Below the pieces are notes generated by a model. It was given only the letters and a program-made list of their open reading frames with translations, ran no database searches and was not told where the DNA came from. This document shows, piece after piece, positions 830 through 20,258 of a stretch of DNA of 32,000 bases. Source of the stretch: Promethearchaeota archaeon (GTDB taxonomy: Archaea; Asgardarchaeota; Lokiarchaeia; Sigyniarchaeales; Promethearchaeaceae); contig JAFGBS010000034.1 in assembly GCA_016933055.1 (NCBI GenBank), forward strand, positions 120,001-152,000, given 5' to 3'. Positions within the stretch are counted from its first letter, which is position 1. Each line of letters starts with the position of its first letter. The position numbers and the translations under genes are program-made.

Positions 830-1933
830 TTATGTAGATGCACGACTTTTCGTGAATCTTGCGCGATATTCATCCTTAAGGGTATCGATATACTCCAAAG
901 CAGCTTGTAAACTGATTGCTTTTAATGAATATTGTTCTCGAATGAGATTTAATGCGTATTCTGGAAAAATTTTTTCGATTTGGACATTCGATTGCAATGC
1001 ATAATATTCATTTCCGGCTTCATCCCGTAAAACAACGATCATCTGAACATCCCATAAATTCTTGAGTACTGCATCTATATCATTGACCCCTTTTTTTTGT
1101 AGTTTCTCCAGATCATCCCGTGTGACGATTGCTTGTCGCAATAGCTTTAAAGTCTCATATGTGGCAGGATCGAGTAAAGTATTCAACAGTTTCAAATTAT
1201 CTTCTTCCGTATTTTCATATTCACGGAAAAAGGATGTTACTTCGCTCTTGTAATCTTCAGCTAATTTCTGCGGTAATCCACGACTGACAGATTCACGAAT
1301 TAACTCTGTAGGAGGGACACGCGTGATGAAAATATCATTTATTAAGTAGAGCATTTCACTGGGGCTTCCTTTTACAGAACGTGTCTTAATAATTGAATCT
1401 TTAATCAAACTCTGCATCAACCCTTCTACGTCAGCGAATCCATCTCGATATTGATCCTTCAACCACACGGTAACTTCGGATTTCAATAGAGACCCTTCTT
1501 CTTGTAAGCGTTTAATCACCATTCTTCTTGCTTTATCTGTGTACAACATTGCAGTTTTGAGTTCTTCTGTAAGCTTTGGATACACGGACAATCTTTGAAA
1601 AATACTCGGTATTAATAATCGGTAGGCGTCATTTTCTAAATTTTGAATAACTAATCGTGTGGCGTCACTTAATCCGTCCTCAAACACCTCTGGATCCTCA
1701 TCTAGTGTCAATGCTAGAATCATATACACTCCAATATCTGGTCCAGTATAATAGGATACTAAATTCATAGAACCGACATTGAGAGAAATTAACCCGGATT
1801 CTCCAGAGTATTCATGAGTTGAATAGATTTGCATTAAGGTTTTATTTGTTACATCGATAGATTCAGGATATTTTGCAAGAATCGACACACCAAGCCGTTC
1901 GTCCCATTTCATTAGTACTAAACCTGTAGGCAT
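830..1933 (-). CDS. Longin/uDENN-like N-terminal domain plus probable winged-helix domains (NPRL2-like architecture)
   Basis: The N-terminus GLVLMKWDERLGVSILAKYPE fits the uDENN/longin beta1-beta2 pattern. Two later segments look like winged helices. The start lies 1 nt after the upstream stop and has an SD-like GGAGGAGGT. The gene is well supported; the fold is inferred. Confidence 0.6.
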   Translation of the reverse strand: MPTGLVLMKWDERLGVSILAKYPESIDVTNKTLMQIYSTHEYSGESGLISLNVGSMNLVSYYTGPDIGVYMILALTLDEDPEVFEDGLSDATRLVIQNLENDAYRLLIPSIFQRLSVYPKLTEELKTAMLYTDKARRMVIKRLQEEGSLLKSEVTVWLKDQYRDGFADVEGLMQSLIKDSIIKTRSVKGSPSEMLYLINDIFITRVPPTELIRESVSRGLPQKLAEDYKSEVTSFFREYENTEEDNLKLLNTLLDPATYETLKLLRQAIVTRDDLEKLQKKGVNDIDAVLKNLWDVQMIVVLRDEAGNEYYALQSNVQIEKIFPEYALNLIREQYSLKAISLQAALEYIDTLKDEYRARFTKSRAST

Positions 1934-4900: not shown

Positions 4901-6779
4901 AATCAGCACTTCCCACCGAGGAGTAATATGATGGGCTTATCCAATCGATTATTGTGGATGATTGATTCCAAACAAGAATACTGGGTTCTGGTAGATTTCC
5001 TAATGCAGAGTCATATCTTCTATAACTCCCTGCGAACATTTCTATCTCGTTATCATTATCAAGATCCCCAAATCTAGGATAATATAAATCATGATAAGGA
5101 ACCGATGTATTACCCCATTGACCCCATACAAATTCTTGAACAATACTATCAGTTTGATTTGCAAGACCTTTGACTTTAATTACGGCTATAGATGAATTAT
5201 AATAAGAATCAGAATTACCTATAATAATCTCAGTATACCCATCGTAATCCCAATCATACATTGCTCCTACTACGGGATCTCTGAAATTGGGATCGGATGG
5301 TATGTTGAAAGTTCCTTCGTGCTCCATCTGTCCTGTCTCATTCATCTGCCAGATATATATGTAATGATTATTATCATGATCTGACATAACTAGCTCGATA
5401 TTCCCATCATTATCAATATCACCCGCCGATATAGAACGTACTTCTTGGGGGAGTATACCACCATGACCGGTTTTGACCTCTTGTGTGATATTAAAATGTT
5501 CATACTCTCCCGTTCCATTATTCATCCAGAAATATACGGTGTATCCAAATCGATCATAATAATCTCCATCTACATCAGCAGCAATAATATCTAAGAACCC
5601 ATTGTGGTCCATATCCGCTAAAACCATAGCTTGAAGTCCTATTTCTCCAGTGCTCCAATACTCTTGAATATTTAATACATGATTGAGTTGAGCATCCAGA
5701 GTTATGTTATAAATCACAATATAATTATGAATATCATAGCGATTCATTGTAATGATTTCATCACTTCCATCATTATCTATATCTGCTGCATATACACTAT
5801 AATGCGTCCAACTAGTCGCTGCTATTTCAGAATCTGCCAGACTTTCGAAATCAAGAGGATCCCCGTTTTCTGTTTGCAGTGGAATGAATAACCCTGTTAC
5901 GGGATTGTAATCCATTAACCAAAATTGATTTTCTCGATCATTAACTAATAGTTCCACCTCACCATCCCCATTAAAATCCCCGGGTATAGGATCTAAGTAC
6001 CTTTGTATATCCGAATGAGGACGCCCGTAATAAATAGTATCTGATAAATCATCGTTCCATATTGTGAGTTTTCCTCTATTTTCAGCAACATTATCTCGAA
6101 GATTGCCATAAGCAAGGTGGAATTTTTTATCTCCAATAACATCCGTTTTATAATTATAATCTTTTTTCCAGATTAGTGAATCAGGAGTCGCAAGATATCC
6201 ACCAGTATTCTCAATGGTATCAAAATATATCATGAAAGTACGATTGGTATTAGCAATTGATTTACCCGGTAGTTCAAACCATAGTTGCCCGAACGCATTA
6301 ATTTCTGCATGATAATTGTCATATTTTTCTAGGGGAATGAAAAGTGATGGAATCACATATTTATTCATTTCAATTACTTCGTTCACATTAAACAATTTCG
6401 GATAATACGGACCGATTCCTTCATATTCTACCACACGAACGGAATCTTTATCAAATTCACCCGACCAACCTGATTCAATTAATACCTGCGTAAAATTAAC
6501 ATCAATTTTCACAGAATAATCAGTTCGATTCATATACGTTGAGTTGATTTCCAGCGGAATTCTATAGGTAAAACTGGTAAAATTCGACCAATCATAGACT
6601 CCCGTTGGATTATAATTTGTGGATGATTTCAATCCAAGTTCATGTTTGGGTAAAATTGGGTTTGACTGCGAAAAAAAATGAGTACTAGGAACCAATAAAA
6701 ATATGCTAAGAAGTATAGAGATAAGTAGAACTGTGGTTTGTGTTAGGCGTTTCGTGTATTTTGTCAAGTAACAGTGCAC
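1935..6779 (-). CDS. Large membrane-anchored cell-surface glycoprotein with FG-GAP/VCBS-type repeats and Ig-like beta-rich domains
   Basis: 1614 aa. Features: hydrophobic signal peptide, six DxDxDG-type repeats, about 30 N-x-S/T sequons, a single C-terminal TM (FYFVLGVAFVVVGVGAIVL) and a charged cytoplasmic tail of about 75 aa. The GTG start is uncertain. Confidence 0.85.
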   Translation of the reverse strand: MHCYLTKYTKRLTQTTVLLISILLSIFLLVPSTHFFSQSNPILPKHELGLKSSTNYNPTGVYDWSNFTSFTYRIPLEINSTYMNRTDYSVKIDVNFTQVLIESGWSGEFDKDSVRVVEYEGIGPYYPKLFNVNEVIEMNKYVIPSLFIPLEKYDNYHAEINAFGQLWFELPGKSIANTNRTFMIYFDTIENTGGYLATPDSLIWKKDYNYKTDVIGDKKFHLAYGNLRDNVAENRGKLTIWNDDLSDTIYYGRPHSDIQRYLDPIPGDFNGDGEVELLVNDRENQFWLMDYNPVTGLFIPLQTENGDPLDFESLADSEIAATSWTHYSVYAADIDNDGSDEIITMNRYDIHNYIVIYNITLDAQLNHVLNIQEYWSTGEIGLQAMVLADMDHNGFLDIIAADVDGDYYDRFGYTVYFWMNNGTGEYEHFNITQEVKTGHGGILPQEVRSISAGDIDNDGNIELVMSDHDNNHYIYIWQMNETGQMEHEGTFNIPSDPNFRDPVVGAMYDWDYDGYTEIIIGNSDSYYNSSIAVIKVKGLANQTDSIVQEFVWGQWGNTSVPYHDLYYPRFGDLDNDNEIEMFAGSYRRYDSALGNLPEPSILVWNQSSTIIDWISPSYYSSVGSADSNSQTMMTVFGAWDNYVYRQNPLHYLYTGKAKSPDLTIHILDMDMGPVFNASVTITLDGFSDTKHTDQNGMAIFELLNDGSYTVNVYYSTSYYSEELVYVDSSLVIDSSSQLYAEETYVVPLQKIYFDVTDINGGDFTAGNLVVWNQTKGGAVGDNMSLGTNLEYFTWIARSSYDVSVLYLNNNYKNPITYVNDTTILPVGNETSIIRDFNSTGMIDLGGNDYQFVFEFEVDELLNWINIDLSSVTDYIDSVSVQLIFDLGEDMVYYEDISGTSTQDWTGSIPLWSDSSGIMRLDSLRSNKVRVIILGHNTTTNDGTIEVDLYHQAVESINIPFAEVELNFIDGDDVPAEGFAIQIYDTEIDRLAGNHTAIVNLTTNEYGDALDADGNPFYYFTKSPENYSLMAVFYRQARTFSSTGQNYANFTFSAFDSFQFQVTVQVQATVYTTNITLQNTLATSVDFDQDYYAHIRITANDSIEVFDIEADPFLKIYSVKTNSLVYQEHMVTTGTKGYYDIIFNPQADEIILGDADYSYYIIIEANTPGYGAGPLPIVSSLTINPISTSVSFDQIVAATWTDIATFDIIYEDRESIAISGAYVSYDAPWLFDTVVVPESGTPGIYSVSIDTTDPGNVGDYILKFTAFKNNYLIQQFDVRLSIRPLATSLNDTNPADFLLSYVTPRVNLTQSYPIYFEYTVAGTGDGITGATVTCFVDYTYVNGTKGSETLLDEITELGNGVYELNYNTESLPEGIYEFDIKFEKLNHDAKVASVTLEMVKNQFNYAFTSGNFDNNVLKFTIPQGDSATLSLDLTKKLNGEAADNASVVFITSEGQRIDFTYQGDGIYTYLISGDINTFIQKQIVEGTIEITADYYETYTFTVQVTVQMHSLFAEIPTFYFVLGVAFVVVGVGAIVLTKAVQNSRIPEFVKKCDAVAKEISKKKTIDTRTSVVKDKKEKLIEIFSKDWEDLGLDFRKAIGTKSKEPAEKQPSEEVM
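1942..1950 (-). promoter_or_regulatory. Shine-Dalgarno-like site for the longin-like gene
   Basis: GGAGGAGGT on the minus strand, 8 nt before the ATG at 1933, inside the 3' end of the surface-protein gene. Confidence 0.6.
5028..5981 (-). repeat. Six FG-GAP-like Ca-binding protein repeats (probable beta-propeller)
   Basis: GDFNGDGEVELLV, ADIDNDGSDEIIT, ADMDHNGFLDIIA, GDIDNDGNIELVM, YDWDYDGYTEIII, GDLDNDNEIEMFA. Confidence 0.85.
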
Positions 6780-8008: not shown

Positions 8009-8105
8009 TATCAATTCCCAGCTTAATGATGGATAATTCGTTTTATCCATGTTTAATAGATTTTTTGCTTTTAAAGCTTCAAGTTCATTTTCTCATAAGA
8101 TTAAA

Positions 8106-9014
8106 ATGGGAATTCATCAAATCTTTTCTAGAGGTTTTAATGTGATTATATTTATTACCGCACAACCGACGCATTCGACGAAAAATCAAATCATTAACAC
8201 TTTTATGAATGCAAAAGTTCCTTACATAGTCTTAGATCCATCAATACCATGGTTCAAATTGCGCAAAAATTTTCAAAATGATGTATCAATTTGTTTATTA
8301 GCTCCCGACCATCCAAATGCATTTAAAATTTGTTCGTATTTACTGGCTAAAAATATTTATGTACTCAATCCACCCAGAACCACACTGTTGTGCAAACAGA
8401 GAATTGAAGTAAATATTCGATTGAATTCGATTCTCACCCAATTTAAAAAGGATAATCCCGTCTGTCCTATCCATATTCCTATGTCCCGCTATTATAAAAA
8501 AAAAGGATTGTTACTAACTCAAGTAAACGAAATTGATTTCCCGTTTGTGATAAAATATCCGATAAACCATTTAGGAATCCATCATGTGGAACTTATTCAA
8601 AATATGCAAGATCTCTCAACAAAAATACCGAAATTCTTCAATAAAAATGGTATTTACACTGAACAATATGTGGAAGCACAAGAATTGCTCATCAAGACTT
8701 ATCATTTAGGAGATACAACCATTACTCAACAAGAATCTCACCACCTAACGTTGGAAGCGGGTAATAAATTGAAGGAAATATTATTTGAGAGTAAAAATCA
8801 ACGGAAAACTATTGATACTCCTCTTATCTTAAAAAAATTTACAGAATTCATAGCAAAAGAAATGCCTATTACATTTTTTGGGTTAGATCTTTTACGTTCG
8901 TATGATGACCAATACTGGGTAATTGATTTTAATGATTTTCCTGGATCCCGTGGAATATTTAATGCAGGAGAGATTATTGCCAATTGCATAATCGATAAAA
9001 TAAAAGGAAATTAA
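8106..9014 (+). CDS. ATP-grasp enzyme, ITPK1 (inositol phosphate kinase)-like
   Basis: Motifs VLNP, FPFVIK, EQYV, LIKTYHLGD, FFGLDL and VIDFNDFPG. The ATP-grasp fold is confident; ITPK1 specificity is inferred. Start uncertain (ATG 8049 or 8106). Confidence 0.7.
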   Translation: MGIHQIFSRGFNVIIFITAQPTHSTKNQIINTFMNAKVPYIVLDPSIPWFKLRKNFQNDVSICLLAPDHPNAFKICSYLLAKNIYVLNPPRTTLLCKQRIEVNIRLNSILTQFKKDNPVCPIHIPMSRYYKKKGLLLTQVNEIDFPFVIKYPINHLGIHHVELIQNMQDLSTKIPKFFNKNGIYTEQYVEAQELLIKTYHLGDTTITQQESHHLTLEAGNKLKEILFESKNQRKTIDTPLILKKFTEFIAKEMPITFFGLDLLRSYDDQYWVIDFNDFPGSRGIFNAGEIIANCIIDKIKGN

Positions 9015-9049: not shown

Positions 9050-9120
9050 AATCGATGACCCTTTGCAAGGGCGTCCATTCCATCCGCATGCTTTAGGATG
9101 AAATTTCATTCCTATCGATT
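9050..9120 (-). ncRNA. Eukaryote-type SECIS element in the 3' UTR of the hdrA-mvhD selenoprotein operon
   Basis: mRNA sense: AAUCGAU-AGGA-AUGAA-AUUUCAUCC-UAAAGCAUGC-GGAUGGAAU-GGAC-G-CCCUUGCAAAGGG-UC-AUCGAUU. It has a 7-bp helix I, an AUGA/GA non-canonical quartet, a 9-bp helix II and AAA in the apical loop. It starts 10 nt after the mvhD stop. Confidence 0.85.
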
Positions 9121-9130
9121 TGTTTTCAAG

Positions 9131-9604
9131 TTATTTTTTGGGTTTAGTTTCTTTATTCGTATTAGATTGAGGTTTTGGTTTTGGTGCGAGTTCTCTGAGC
9201 GGTGAGGGTCCAAGAGCGTTTATTTTTTCGAACATTGCCACCATCGTTTTTTGGAATTTTTGTCCTTCAGCAGCCGAACAATAGTGCATTTGTAACCGTT
9301 CGGACTCTAATCCCACAGAATCCATTACTTGTTGGAGGTATTTAACATTTCTACCACCATGTTTCGCTCCCGTTAGGTAATTACATTCGTGTTCATAACA
9401 TCCTACGACCGCAACACCATCTGCTCCTTTTCCGAATGCTCTCATGATCATGTCCGAAGACACTCGACCTGCACAGCTGACAAGAACCGGCCTAACAATG
9501 GTTGGATATTGCGCTCGAATAGTTCCCGCCATGTCTCCTGCCCCATAACCTCATTTCCAGCACATAAAAGCTACTATATGTAATTCCTTCTGAATTTGAG
9601 TCAT
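9131..9604 (-). CDS. mvhD: MvhD/VhuD [2Fe-2S] subunit, selenoprotein (Sec at codon 18; 157 aa)
   Basis: From ATG 9604: MTQIQKELHIVAFMCWK-UGA-GYGAGDMAGTIRAQYP..., continuing in frame into the 133-aa track ORF. The UGA at 9553-9551 aligns with the second Cys of FCNWCSFAGAD in the paralogue at 16756..17226. Confidence 0.93.
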
Positions 9605-9618: not shown

Positions 9619-11589
9619 TTACTCTGCTACTCGATATAGTAGATTATCGATTACAGCATTGAATTGGGAGCCACGTGAGTTTCGAACGGTGATGGCTTGA
9701 CTGGGACAAGTTTGTGCGCAGATTCCACAACTTCTGCATTTGACTTCGTCTACGACCGCAAACTTCTGTACGGGATCTAGTGCAATTGCGTCATATGGAC
9801 AATTTTCTACACACAAACCGCATTTTGAGCATCGTATTTCGTCTACAACGGCTTTTTCCATACGCATTCGGTATTCTCCCGGTCTCATGATGATATTTGC
9901 AGATGATGCTGCTCCTTTCGCCTGCATAATCGTTTCAGCAATCGATTTCGGACCTTGAGATGCCCCTGCTAAAGATATTCCTACAACATTTGTATCCACT
10001 GGATTAAGTCGAGAATGATATTCTTTGAAGAATCCATCGGGACTACGTTCCAGTTTGAGTTTATCATTGAGGATACCAATCCCTTGGGCTGGTTCCATAG
10101 CGGAGGATAATACAACAAGATCGAATTCGTGTTCTTTCATTTCTGAGCAATCTTGCAGCATATCTTGCATGTAAACCTTGAGATTATGCGTTTCAGCGTC
10201 TTCTTGTATACGTGGGATAGATGCCTTGACGAATTTTACCCCATATTTTCTGGATTCAAGGTAATATTCTTCATAGGCTTTCCCCCCTGCTCGTATATCA
10301 ATGAACGCTACTATGACGTCAATGTTGGGATCATGTTGCTTGATTAGTTTCGTGTTCTTAATGGAGATTAAGCAACACACACCTGAACTGCAATGTCTAT
10401 TTCGTTTGAGATCACGCGAGCCTACACACTGGATGAACAGTATCTTATGAGGGTGTTTCCCATCGGATGGTCGAACGATATTCCCATAAGTTGGTCCATT
10501 TGGAGCGAGAATTCGTTCCAGTTCTAGTTGGGTTATAACATTGGGATATTTACCGTATCCAAGATACCCCTCTTGTCGGAATTCGTCCCAACCTGTGGCA
10601 ACGATTATTGTACCGACTTTCAGTTTCTTAATCTTATCTGTATCATCGAAATTTATGGCATTCAGTTCGCATTCGTCCATACATAATCCACAACGGATGC
10701 ATTTGGTCATATCTATCTGAGCAACCATCGGAACTGCTTGGGCAAATGATACATAGATTGCTTTTCTCGGACCGAGATTCTGGTCAAATTCGGAAGCACT
10801 ATAAGCAGGACAGACTTCTTCACATGCCCTGCATCCATTACAATCGCTATTAGTGTATTTTGCGTGTTGTAACACTTCCACTTCGAAGTTTCCGACGAAA
10901 CCCGAGACACTTTGCACTTCGGTAAGTGTCATGAGGTGAATGTTTTTATTTCGATTCACATCCAGCATCAACGGACCCAAGATTCAAATACTGCAGTCGT
11001 CAGTAGGAAAGGTTCGATCTAACATGGCCATTTTTCCACCTATCGTCGCAGCTTTTTCGACTAGATAAACTTCATATTCCGAAGCTAAGTCTAGTGCTGC
11101 TTGCATTCCTCCAATCCCTCCACCTATTACAAGCGCTTTTTTTTCGACAGGGAACGTTTTTTCAGGAATTGGTTCCAAGAACATTGATCGCGCAACTCCG
11201 GCACGAATGAGTTCTTCGGCTTTGAGTTGGGCTTTATCTTTTTCCTTCATATGAACAAAGGAGACATGCTCTCGGATATTCACGAACTCCAGATACGATG
11301 GATCTAATCCCGAATCTTCCAAAACCGCCCTAAATACAGGTTGATGGGTTTTTGGCGTGCAAGCGGCCACTATGATCCGATTCAGCTTATGTTCCTCAAC
11401 AGCTTCTTTTATTAAATCCGCTCCGGAGGTAGTACATAAACTAATATTATCGGTGGAATGCACCACGTTAGGTAGTTTTCCTGAGTATTCAGCGAGTTTC
11501 TCTGTGTCTAGTGTACCAGCTATGTTAACACCGCACCGGCAAACAAAACACCCAATACGAATCTCTTTTTCAGCGTTTTCTGCTGCCAT
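9619..11589 (-). CDS. hdrA: Heterodisulfide reductase subunit A, selenoprotein (Sec at codon 202; 656 aa)
   Basis: The two track ORFs (10984..11589 and 9619..10980) are in one frame, joined by TGA ATC: FPTDDCSI-U-ILGPLM versus FPTMDCSA-C-ILTPKM in the Cys paralogue. The FAD motif GGGIGG, the QCVGSRD..CSSGVCC motif and four CxxCxxCxxxC motifs are present. Confidence 0.95.
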
Positions 11590-13827: not shown

Positions 13828-14602
13828 AAATACTCTTGTATCTCCCCTTTCGAATCGTAAAATAAAGGAGAAATATGCTAAATAGAAACAATACTGATGT
13901 AATATAAATGTAGTTCCAATAAAATTCTAATTGCATGTTTATGAGTAATAGATTTACTACTCCTAGAAAATAACCAGCATTAATTAAGATAAAATAAACC
14001 ACCTTGCGTTTTTGAGTTCCAGTTTCCGCATCAGGAAAGATGCGGATTATCAATATTAAATCTATGATGAAAAAAACGCTCAAAATTGTGAATAAGTAGA
14101 TAGCAAGCGGAAGATTGATTTTAAAAAAATCATAGCCACTTTCTGGTTCTGGTATAAATTGAAATCCATTGGTGGGAAATAAAAAATAACTTGCAATTAT
14201 TGAACTAAAGACGATGAGAATAAGAAATATGGCTAAAATCGAGAATTTTCTATCTCGATAATATCGTTCTCCAAAATTAATGATGAAGAAAGCCGTACCA
14301 AATAAAATGAAAATGATAACCATTGATGCGGTAATAATGGAAACTAAGAGCATATATATCTCTACCAAAAAGGTACCGGATAATAAATTGCGTGTATCAA
14401 TTACAATAGACAAAATCTTTGTTACAATATTTAGCCCTGAAAAACCCACTACTGTAAAAAAGACTAGTGAAAAATATACATTTGCGAGGGATTGGGAATG
14501 TTTTATAATATTAATACCCAAAAATAATAATATACTTATTTCAATTACAAGAATTCCGATTATTATAATGTCATCACGGTAATTTAGGAATACTTGGTAC
14601 AT
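13820..14602 (-). CDS. Polytopic membrane protein, about 7 TM, function unknown
   Basis: 260 aa with seven hydrophobic segments and a basic C-terminus. It overlaps the convergent gene by 8 nt. Confidence 0.75.
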   Translation of the reverse strand: MYQVFLNYRDDIIIIGILVIEISILLFLGINIIKHSQSLANVYFSLVFFTVVGFSGLNIVTKILSIVIDTRNLLSGTFLVEIYMLLVSIITASMVIIFILFGTAFFIINFGERYYRDRKFSILAIFLILIVFSSIIASYFLFPTNGFQFIPEPESGYDFFKINLPLAIYLFTILSVFFIIDLILIIRIFPDAETGTQKRKVVYFILINAGYFLGVVNLLLINMQLEFYWNYIYITSVLFLFSIFLLYFTIRKGRYKSISK

Positions 14603-19244: not shown

Positions 19245-20258
19245 TTAAGATTCGGTTTTCACCGATTGTTTTTGTAATTGTTTATAATCATATCCCAATT
19301 CCTTGAAAATTCGCGATAGAATTGGTTCTTGGTCCACAAATGGGGGTACTCCTTTAAGATTGTGATGTTTTACTAAACCTAAATCATTCGGATGCATTCC
19401 CATTGCAAGCCCCAGTAATTGGGTATAATAGAATACCGGAATTGCAAAAGGTGCGGAAATTTCATCCTTGAATATGCTGTTGACCTCAATTTGTCCAAGA
19501 TCCAATTGTAACATACAGAAGGGACACATCACCACGATGCATTCAGCTCCTGCCTCTCTCATCATTTCTAATTTATGCCGCGTGAAATCTAATGATACTT
19601 CTTTAATAGCGGATCGCACTCCTCCACCCGCTCCACAGCACATATGTTTATCTTTATAGTCTGTGCTTTCACATCCGATTACCTCCACTAATTCATCAAA
19701 AAACCTTGGATCTTCCGTTTCTCCCCCCCACGGTCGTATCGCACTGGGTTTTGTTAAATGGCATCCATAGTGGACTGCACATTTCAATCCACCTAACAAA
19801 CGGGTTACTGAATCGCGGATTTTATCCATTCCAAGATCCATGTATAATACTTCTGCGAGGTGTTTGACTTTTATTGAACCTTTGAATTTTTTATCAATTT
19901 TTACAAGATGGTTGTTGACAAAAGTGCGCTTTTTCTCGTCAGTTTTGAGTTGATGATCTACGTCAATGAGAGTTCCGTAACACCCATTGCACATTGTTAC
20001 AAGATCTGCATTATTCTCTTCAGCGATTGCGATATTTCGAGCTCCGATAGCTAACCATGTGGGAATATCAAACGATCGAAATACTCCGGGAGCTGGGCAA
20101 CAGCTAGCTCCTTGCATATCTTTTAAACGAACGCCGAGTTCATTCAGTACATTGCGAGTTGCCTGCTCTACGAAGGGATAGCGATTTGGAATGACGCAGC
20201 CGAGGTAAAACGAATATTCTGGGGGTGTTATTTCTTCGTGACTCAAATTTTTGTGCAC
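19245..20258 (-). CDS. hdrB: Heterodisulfide reductase subunit B
   Basis: Two CCG domains: SCCPAPG..CNGC and HYGCH..CCGAGGG..CPFC. Confidence 0.96.
   Translation of the reverse strand: MHKNLSHEEITPPEYSFYLGCVIPNRYPFVEQATRNVLNELGVRLKDMQGASCCPAPGVFRSFDIPTWLAIGARNIAIAEENNADLVTMCNGCYGTLIDVDHQLKTDEKKRTFVNNHLVKIDKKFKGSIKVKHLAEVLYMDLGMDKIRDSVTRLLGGLKCAVHYGCHLTKPSAIRPWGGETEDPRFFDELVEVIGCESTDYKDKHMCCGAGGGVRSAIKEVSLDFTRHKLEMMREAGAECIVVMCPFCMLQLDLGQIEVNSIFKDEISAPFAIPVFYYTQLLGLAMGMHPNDLGLVKHHNLKGVPPFVDQEPILSRIFKELGYDYKQLQKQSVKTES

Follow-up and report, generated by a model that had tools for sequence, protein, structure and literature searches.

A putative K-turn-based three-way junction with a conserved third helix in the SECIS element of an Asgard archaeal hdrA-vhuD operon

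The window analyzed here, a stretch of 32,000 nucleotides from a Promethearchaeota genome (contig JAFGBS010000034.1), carries on its minus strand two adjacent genes that each contain an in-frame UGA (Sec) codon. The upstream gene, hdrA (9619..11589; stop at 9619-9621), has this codon at position 202 within the motif DDCSIU and, when read with TGA as U, gives one unbroken 656-aa HdrA. The second gene, vhuD/mvhD (9131..9604), starts 14 nt past the hdrA stop, has its UGA at codon 18 (FMCWKUGYG) and ends with a TAA stop at 9133-9131; one or two in-frame TGA codons are likewise present in the vhuD orthologs of 12 of the 14 genomes of the window's family. A 71-nt element at 9120..9050 on the same strand starts 10 nt past the vhuD TAA, ∼440 nt from the UGA of vhuD and ∼1.9 kb from that of hdrA. 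The hdrA-vhuD spacer is 14 nt long and contains no SECIS, and one element is common to both genes. We conclude with good confidence that 9120..9050 is the single SECIS recoding the UGA codons of co-transcribed hdrA and vhuD, that it belongs to the known eukaryote-like kind of Asgard SECIS, and that its full form is a K-turn-based three-way junction with a third helix. There are no experimental data on transcription, folding, protein binding, or Sec insertion at this locus, and among public sequencing runs none of RNA is listed as containing the stretch.

Read along the minus strand, the element begins with the 5′ strand of helix I, AAUCGAU (9120-9114), which in the minimum free energy (MFE) fold pairs with AUCGAUU at 9056-9050, the latter closing the three-way junction 1 nt after the third helix. 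The 5′ junction and the bulged strand of the predicted K-turn follow at 9113-9106 (A-G, then G 9111 at position -1b, the bulge A-A-U at 9110-9108, G1b at 9107, and A2b at 9106), so placed that AUGA, the 5′ side of the core, occupies 9109-9106; A 9105 then stands opposite G 9076 as a 3b:3n A.G. Helix II is formed in the MFE fold by 9 bp between AUUUCAUCC (9104-9096) and GGAUGGAAU (9085-9077) and is capped by the apical loop UAAAGCAUGC (9095-9086) with a conserved AAA. The nonbulged strand of the K-turn (9076-9073) comprises G(3n) 9076, the 3′ GA at 9075-9074 (G2n and A1n), and C(-1n) 9073, the partner of G 9111. Beyond it lies the third (T) helix, the side hairpin CCCUU-GCA-AAGGG at 9071-9059, whose stem can be lengthened by a G:U pair (9072/9058) to span 9072-9058. 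The junction is tight, with two unpaired nucleotides between helix I and the C pair G9111:C9073, none between the C pair and the T helix, and one between the T helix and helix I. RNAfold returns exactly this three-way junction as the MFE structure (7 bp in helix I, 9 bp in helix II, and 6 bp in the side hairpin; -20 kcal/mol). The energy itself is not significant (z = -1.33; 25 of 200 shuffles equally stable), and since single-sequence energy is thus uninformative, the case rests on comparative data and not on thermodynamics.

The core of the element belongs to a described class. Mariotti et al. (2016; PMC4989117) defined the lokiSECIS by an AUGA, a stem of 9 bp, an A-rich loop of 11 nt with G as its last residue, and a GA, located just downstream of the gene, with one element serving the hdrA-vhuD tandem. 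The window element agrees in its 3′ UTR site after vhuD, its sharing by hdrA and vhuD, its AUGA and GA, the ∼9-bp stem between them, and the A-rich loop of 10-12 nt. Its upper part can be read either as 9 bp with the 10-nt loop UAAAGCAUGC, itself in agreement with the lokiSECIS description, or as 8 bp with a 12-nt loop ending in G, and its total length is one nucleotide more than the published 9+11+9. Because all published lokiSECIS features are met, the core is of a known kind. The first-pass annotation had drawn the 71-nt string with its helices, core, loop, and side hairpin; these were located at 9120..9050 on the minus strand, and the MFE fold is identical to that drawing. Its view that the AUGA/GA/AAA core is that of a eukaryote-style SECIS, serving a selenoprotein operon from the 3′ UTR, is supported by the Sec-hdrA and Sec-vhuD genes upstream, with the qualification that this likeness had already been published as lokiSECIS (PMC4989117). 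It had also set the element apart from the methanococcal GAA/A SECIS, correctly, in that the hallmarks of euryarchaeal SECIS, the GAA/A asymmetric bulge and a GC-only 3-bp upper stem, are absent from 9050-9120. The euryarchaeal elements (Methanococcales/Methanopyrus) resemble the present one in being 3′ UTR elements for the same gene families, and methanococcal vhuD elements have been reported with AUGA and GAC/AAC around an extra stem, without a third helix in the description (PMC4989117).

To keep the hairpin from determining which sequences entered its own count, the sample for comparison was anchored on protein and not on RNA. With the window VhuD as query, genomes of the family, class, and phylum were searched, and the DNA downstream of the best in-frame-TGA matches was taken, giving 51 vhuD 3′ UTRs, of which 41 represent six families of the class and the other 10 represent four families belonging to other classes of the phylum. 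Two RNA-level alternatives, a loose genome pattern ATGA...GA (16,504 matches) and a three-way-junction descriptor (1,338 matches), were dropped as too unspecific in an AT-rich genome. A first covariance model, built from seven close sequences, gave distant orthologs only 10-25 bits along with spurious matches, and its alignments were excluded from the pair counts. A single MAFFT alignment of all 41 class sequences was anchored on the loop GC with the stems out of register, and clade-wise alignments were used instead.

A hairpin of at least 4 bp starting no more than 6 nt from the 3′ GA is present in 40 of the 41 class sequences, compared with a mean of 17.5 and a maximum of 27 in 300 dinucleotide shuffles; at a minimum of 5 bp the counts are 31 of 41 and 8.0, respectively. 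The hairpin is also found in all 12 vhuD orthologs of the window's family and in 10/10 sequences from the four families of other classes. In an ortholog with 79% protein identity, helix I and the hairpin are nearly letter-identical, the apical loop is longer by 5 nt, and the flanks cannot be aligned. Its site is fixed, the third helix starting 0-4 nt after A1n of the 3′ GA in 49 of the 51 sequences. The stem itself is highly variable, with 39 distinct third-helix stems among the 51 sequences and compensatory changes between them (e.g., CCCUU/AAGGG, AAACC/GGUUU, AUCC/GGAU, AAUGG/CCAUU, ACCU/AGGU, and CCUAU/AUAGG; further GCCC/GGGC, CUCUU/AAGAG, GUGCC/GGCAU, CCCCC/GGGGG, and AUCCUC/GAGGAU).

RNAalifold applied to an unguided MAFFT alignment independently yields the side hairpin. 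When 17 diverse sequences are aligned by MAFFT without reference to structure, 86.7% of hairpin cells are paired versus 61.4% in shuffles, and the covariation score of the hairpin is 0.679 versus 0.231, values that none of 500 shuffles reaches; shifting the partners by 1 to 3 columns leaves a covariation of only 0.03-0.26. All five hairpin pairs and all nine helix II pairs vary on both sides in this alignment, and helix I also covaries in relatives (AUGUCGA/UCGGCAU, GAAACA/UGUUUC, CUCGAUGG/CCAUCGAG, AUAUAUGG/CCAUAUAU, and CCACCAC/GUGGUGG). The shuffle statistics overstate significance because the sampled sequences are related and not independent. Moreover, sequence conservation of the third helix (AAUGG/CCAUU) leaves almost no covariation within the largest family (f3, type A), so that pairing there is supported only by comparison with other clades. 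On the comparative sequence evidence taken together, the side hairpin is a conserved third helix across Asgard archaea and not an incidental feature.

The same alignments bear on the register of the core. With the 5′ strand numbered -2b, -1b, L1, L2, L3, G1b, A2b and the 3′ strand G2n, A1n, -1n, -2n, the -1b:-1n position is Watson-Crick or wobble in 51/51 sequences if a 3-nt bulge is assumed, against 10-18 of 51 in other registers (GC 27, UA 9, AU 8, UG 4, CG 2, GU 1), and -2b:-2n is paired in 40 of 51. The bulge is mostly RAU (AAU 26, GAU 16, UAU 4; n = 51) and the commonest 3′ motif is GAC. By its sequence, the core is a canonical K-turn, with a 3-nt bulge, a C stem of 1-3 bp, and tandem G.A/A.G pairs. 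The -1b:-1n result therefore resolves the ‘internal loop’ into a C stem of 1-3 bp plus the 3-nt bulge. In its resemblance to the simple K-turns bound by L7Ae (Kt-7; box C/D RUGAUGA...CUGA), the core has a 3-nt bulge ending in U, a GA, an opposite GA, and a Watson-Crick -1b:-1n pair, the AUGA of Asgard SECIS corresponding to the RUGA of box C. It departs from them in that its C stem is just 1-3 bp and opens into a junction, in its long helix II with an AAA loop, and in lacking a D/D′ guide organization.

A third helix on the nonbulged strand gives the predicted structure a k-junction-like topology. The secondary-structure definition of the k-junction (Wang, Daldrop, Huang, Lilley 2014; PMC4005666) is met in 49 of the 51 sequences, in which the T helix follows 0-4 nt after A1n. 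Coaxial stacking of T on C and a kinked geometry are not supported by any structural data. The k-junction of TPP riboswitches is unrelated to Asgard SECIS in sequence and function, and differs in that here 0-3 unpaired nucleotides and a C stem of 1-3 bp lie between A1n and the T helix.

Besides the GA of AUGA and the apical A residues, the GC in the loop of the third helix is the most constant part of the element. Counting the closing pair, GC is present in the loop of 48 of the 51 sequences, compared with 11.6% of equal-length control stretches. Of the three sequences scored automatically as lacking it, one (L069) was mis-picked and its true hairpin, AAUGG-UUGCA-CCAU, has the GC, and another (L080) has a weak and short stem. 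Typical loops are GCA, GCG, NGCAA, NNGCA(C), and GUAAGCG. In the 41-sequence MAFFT alignment the loop G is invariant and the C is at least 90% conserved; the only other such columns are those of AUGA (GA invariant, A and U at least 90%) and of the apical loop (AA invariant, third A at least 90%). A complement to the loop GC was sought by eye in the apical loop and junction strands, and no consistent one was found. The 5′ tetranucleotide is AUGA in 46 of the 51 sequences, AGGA in three (L083, L085, L089), and UUGA in two (L076, L090), and the 3′ GA is replaced by AA in L014, L114, and L116; all of these variants retain the K-turn register and the third helix. The vhuD SECIS elements of one genus (g6; L019-L021) have in addition a tandem G.A/A.G inside helix II (UUCGAGCU/AGCGAGAA), potentially a second K-turn-like or sheared-pair motif in the upper stem.

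The architecture is not confined to vhuD. In relatives, a covariance model found it after stand-alone Sec-hdrA, vhuU, and small Sec proteins. This result is biased because the hairpin is part of the model, and other selenoprotein genes of the window genome were therefore identified by protein or Pfam homology. The 3′ UTRs of all three genes so found have helix I, the AUGA...GA core, and the side hairpin: vhuU (G000:C11:166668-166464, minus strand), in which the UGA of AUGA is the stop codon of the gene; a small Sec protein related to one with the motif RGUCG (G000:C17:287988-288374, plus strand); and selD (HGUSCK; G000:C22:∼156.7-157.83 kb, plus strand), which has a type II-like element with an apical mini-stem. 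Folded without constraints, the vhuU and selD elements give MFE structures other than the K-turn fold as drawn. UUGCAAA is common to three of the four elements of the window genome, with the distal stems CCC/GGG, GUC/GAC, and CUGC/GCAG; a shared UUGCAAA on covarying distal stems would be the pattern expected from a common trans-acting reader of the loop. To judge from these sequences, the hairpin is a general part of the Asgard SECIS elements of several gene families. As the first-pass annotation had proposed, the hairpin lies outside the standard eukaryotic model, and it lies outside the published Asgard models as well; the orthologs show it conserved with covariation across the class and other classes, and the reservation that it might exist in this genome only fails. 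The extra helix is thus real, whereas the description of it as ‘grafted’ is misleading for a general part of Asgard SECIS. The ‘internal loop’ in which that annotation placed it amounts to a tight K-turn, with a 3-nt bulge and a C stem of 1-3 bp resting on a three-way junction.

The arrangement of SECIS elements around hdrA and vhuD varies among relatives. Two genomes of one family (f6) have a complete three-way SECIS between hdrA and the vhuD start (L088:1377-1456, plus strand; L091:2016-1934, minus strand), consisting of AUGA, helix II, GA, CUGUUU-GCA-AAACAG, and helix I, and a second SECIS after vhuD, so that a single SECIS for each hdrA-vhuD pair is not a universal rule. Genera g4-g6 of the window's family have a stand-alone Sec-hdrA paralog without a downstream vhuD (L053, L054, L055, L058), which has its own three-way SECIS ∼50 nt past the stop. 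In genus g6 there are also partial copies of the vhuD SECIS (L052:1501-1577, plus strand; L057:1578-1501, minus strand) that represent its 3′ two thirds; they retain an intact third helix, and their AUGA half is absent or degenerate. One of these lies after an unrelated repeat-protein gene and the other ∼900 nt downstream of the true element.

Huang et al. (2024; PMC11227280) described Asgard SECIS elements as eSECIS-like type I from more than 400 Asgard genomes, with models that comprise the quartet core together with the upper stem and apical loop. Compared with the published Asgard models, the window element adds the conserved third helix, the closing helix I, and the K-turn register with its 3-nt bulge. 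The running texts of Mariotti et al. (2016), Huang et al. (2024), and a 2026 review, leaving aside figures and the supplement of the first, do not use ‘hairpin’ or ‘three-way’ of Asgard SECIS, and full-text searches of the SECIS literature for three-way junctions, k-junctions, and Asgard L7Ae found no description of the third helix. The third helix, its GC loop, and the putative k-junction-like K-turn appear, then, to be a general feature of Asgard SECIS that has gone undescribed, with the proviso that a published figure could still show the hairpin.

In eukaryotes, SECIS elements are bound by SBP2 and L30. How archaeal SECIS elements are recognized is an open question, and the Asgard elements are cited as a link between archaeal and eukaryotic selenocysteine decoding. 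No SBP2 has been reported in archaea, and archaeal EFsec has been reported not to bind the methanococcal element (PMC4989117). The window genome has two L7Ae-domain genes; a third paralog was sought in this genome as a candidate binder and none was found, so there is no obvious dedicated paralog. In the absence of binding data, we infer, by analogy with SBP2 and L30 on eukaryotic SECIS, that the K-turn may be bound by an L7Ae-family protein or by an unidentified factor. The third helix would hold the junction in a k-junction-like geometry in which T stacks on C, provide a sequence-specific contact through its GC loop, or both. Such a contact would mark the SECIS K-turn apart from the other K-turns of the cell (rRNA, sRNA) and would help to recruit EFsec with Sec-tRNA(Sec) to the ribosome at the UGA codons ∼440 nt and ∼1.9 kb upstream. 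A function of the third helix as a recognition or architecture determinant for an unknown archaeal SECIS binder is an inference from these comparisons and has not been demonstrated.

Three other explanations of the hairpin were weighed. It might be the site of a regulator governing selenium-dependent mRNA stability or the selenoprotein hierarchy and be dispensable for Sec insertion, a possibility that we rate as unlikely without setting it aside. A regulator site would have a precedent in eukaryotes, where the selenoprotein hierarchy is modulated by additional SECIS-binding proteins, nucleolin and eIF4a3 among them; it would also accommodate a loop conserved beyond the needs of pairing (the UUGCAAA of three of four window-genome elements) and the stronger conservation of AAUGG..CCAUU than of helix II in family f3. 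Against these points, the third helix is near-universal in every selenoprotein mRNA examined and is built into the junction, 0-3 nt from the C stem of the K-turn, both of which fit a core role better than differential regulation, and no candidate regulator has been identified.

That the hairpin is an element of the mRNA 3′ end, a terminator or a stabilizer against exonucleases merely adjoining the SECIS, is very improbable. The site does lie in a 3′ UTR between convergent genes, with a T-rich tract at ∼9015-9000 on the minus strand, ∼35-50 nt downstream, but there is no U-run directly after the hairpin, which is moreover enclosed by helix I, whose downstream 3′ strand covaries with the strand upstream of AUGA. 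The occurrence of the same three-way element inside the f6 operon between hdrA and vhuD, where termination would be harmful, further argues against a terminator role. Least credible of all is an incidental lineage-specific insertion or chance palindrome beside a functional SECIS of only two helices and an unstructured internal loop, since, for all that the single-sequence energy is not significant, that short hairpins are common in AT-rich DNA (17.5 of 41 in shuffles), and that published models do without a third helix, the hairpin is present in 40/41 and 10/10 sequences at a fixed site (0-4 nt after GA in 49/51), combines 39 distinct stems with a near-invariant GC loop, and recurs in the SECIS of unrelated genes of the window genome. 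Both the 3′-end and the chance-insertion explanations are contradicted by the data.

The conserved third helix, read as part of the SECIS itself, invites comparison with the eukaryotic elements. Eukaryotic type I SECIS and the window element have in common the AUGA...GA tandem G.A core, unpaired apical A residues, a closing lower helix, and action at a distance from the 3′ UTR. They differ in that helix II of the window element is shorter, that it has no Rfam match, that the third helix branches from its 3′ strand, and that a C stem of 1-3 bp and a 3-nt bulge replace the eukaryotic internal loop; the eukaryotic criterion of two helices with an unbranched internal loop is not met, given the conserved hairpin branching from the 3′ strand. 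One tentative scenario, possible but in our view rather less likely than its alternatives combined, is that the K-turn junction with its GC-loop third helix is the ancestral and general form of the Asgard SECIS, in which the helix specifically docks the archaeal forerunner of SBP2 in recognition, whether this is a protein, a surface of EFsec, or a site on the ribosome, and that the eukaryotic SECIS arose by loss of the helix, leaving an enlarged internal loop, once SBP2 took over.

The third helix provides a testable scenario for the origin of the eukaryotic internal loop and a more specific descriptor for Asgard selenoprotein genes. Together with the loop GC it defines a bait RNA, and sites to mutate in it, for pull-downs with L7Ae, L30e, EFsec, or unknown factors from cultured Asgard archaea. 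The k-junction class, described in TPP riboswitches by the defining paper (PMC4005666), would also gain in Asgard SECIS an example from a natural mRNA.

Two minor features of the window deserve mention. A cmscan search of the whole window with Rfam (E ≤ 10) matched no family, and so no SECIS family, at 9050-9120 and returned only four weak C/D-box matches. These sub-threshold C/D-box sRNA matches lie at 19517-19569 (minus strand), 5695-5765 (minus strand), 14060-14113 (plus strand), and 874-954 (plus strand), the first of them showing AUGAUGA...CUGA...GUGAUG motifs, and may be genuine archaeal C/D sRNAs or chance. On the minus strand, the 12-nt sequence ATCGATTATGCA is repeated exactly and in direct orientation, at 9056-9045 and 8996-8985. 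Its first copy contains the 3′ strand of helix I, and the second lies 60 nt downstream, within the end of the convergent plus-strand open reading frame 8049..9014; the repeat may be the leftover of a local duplication.
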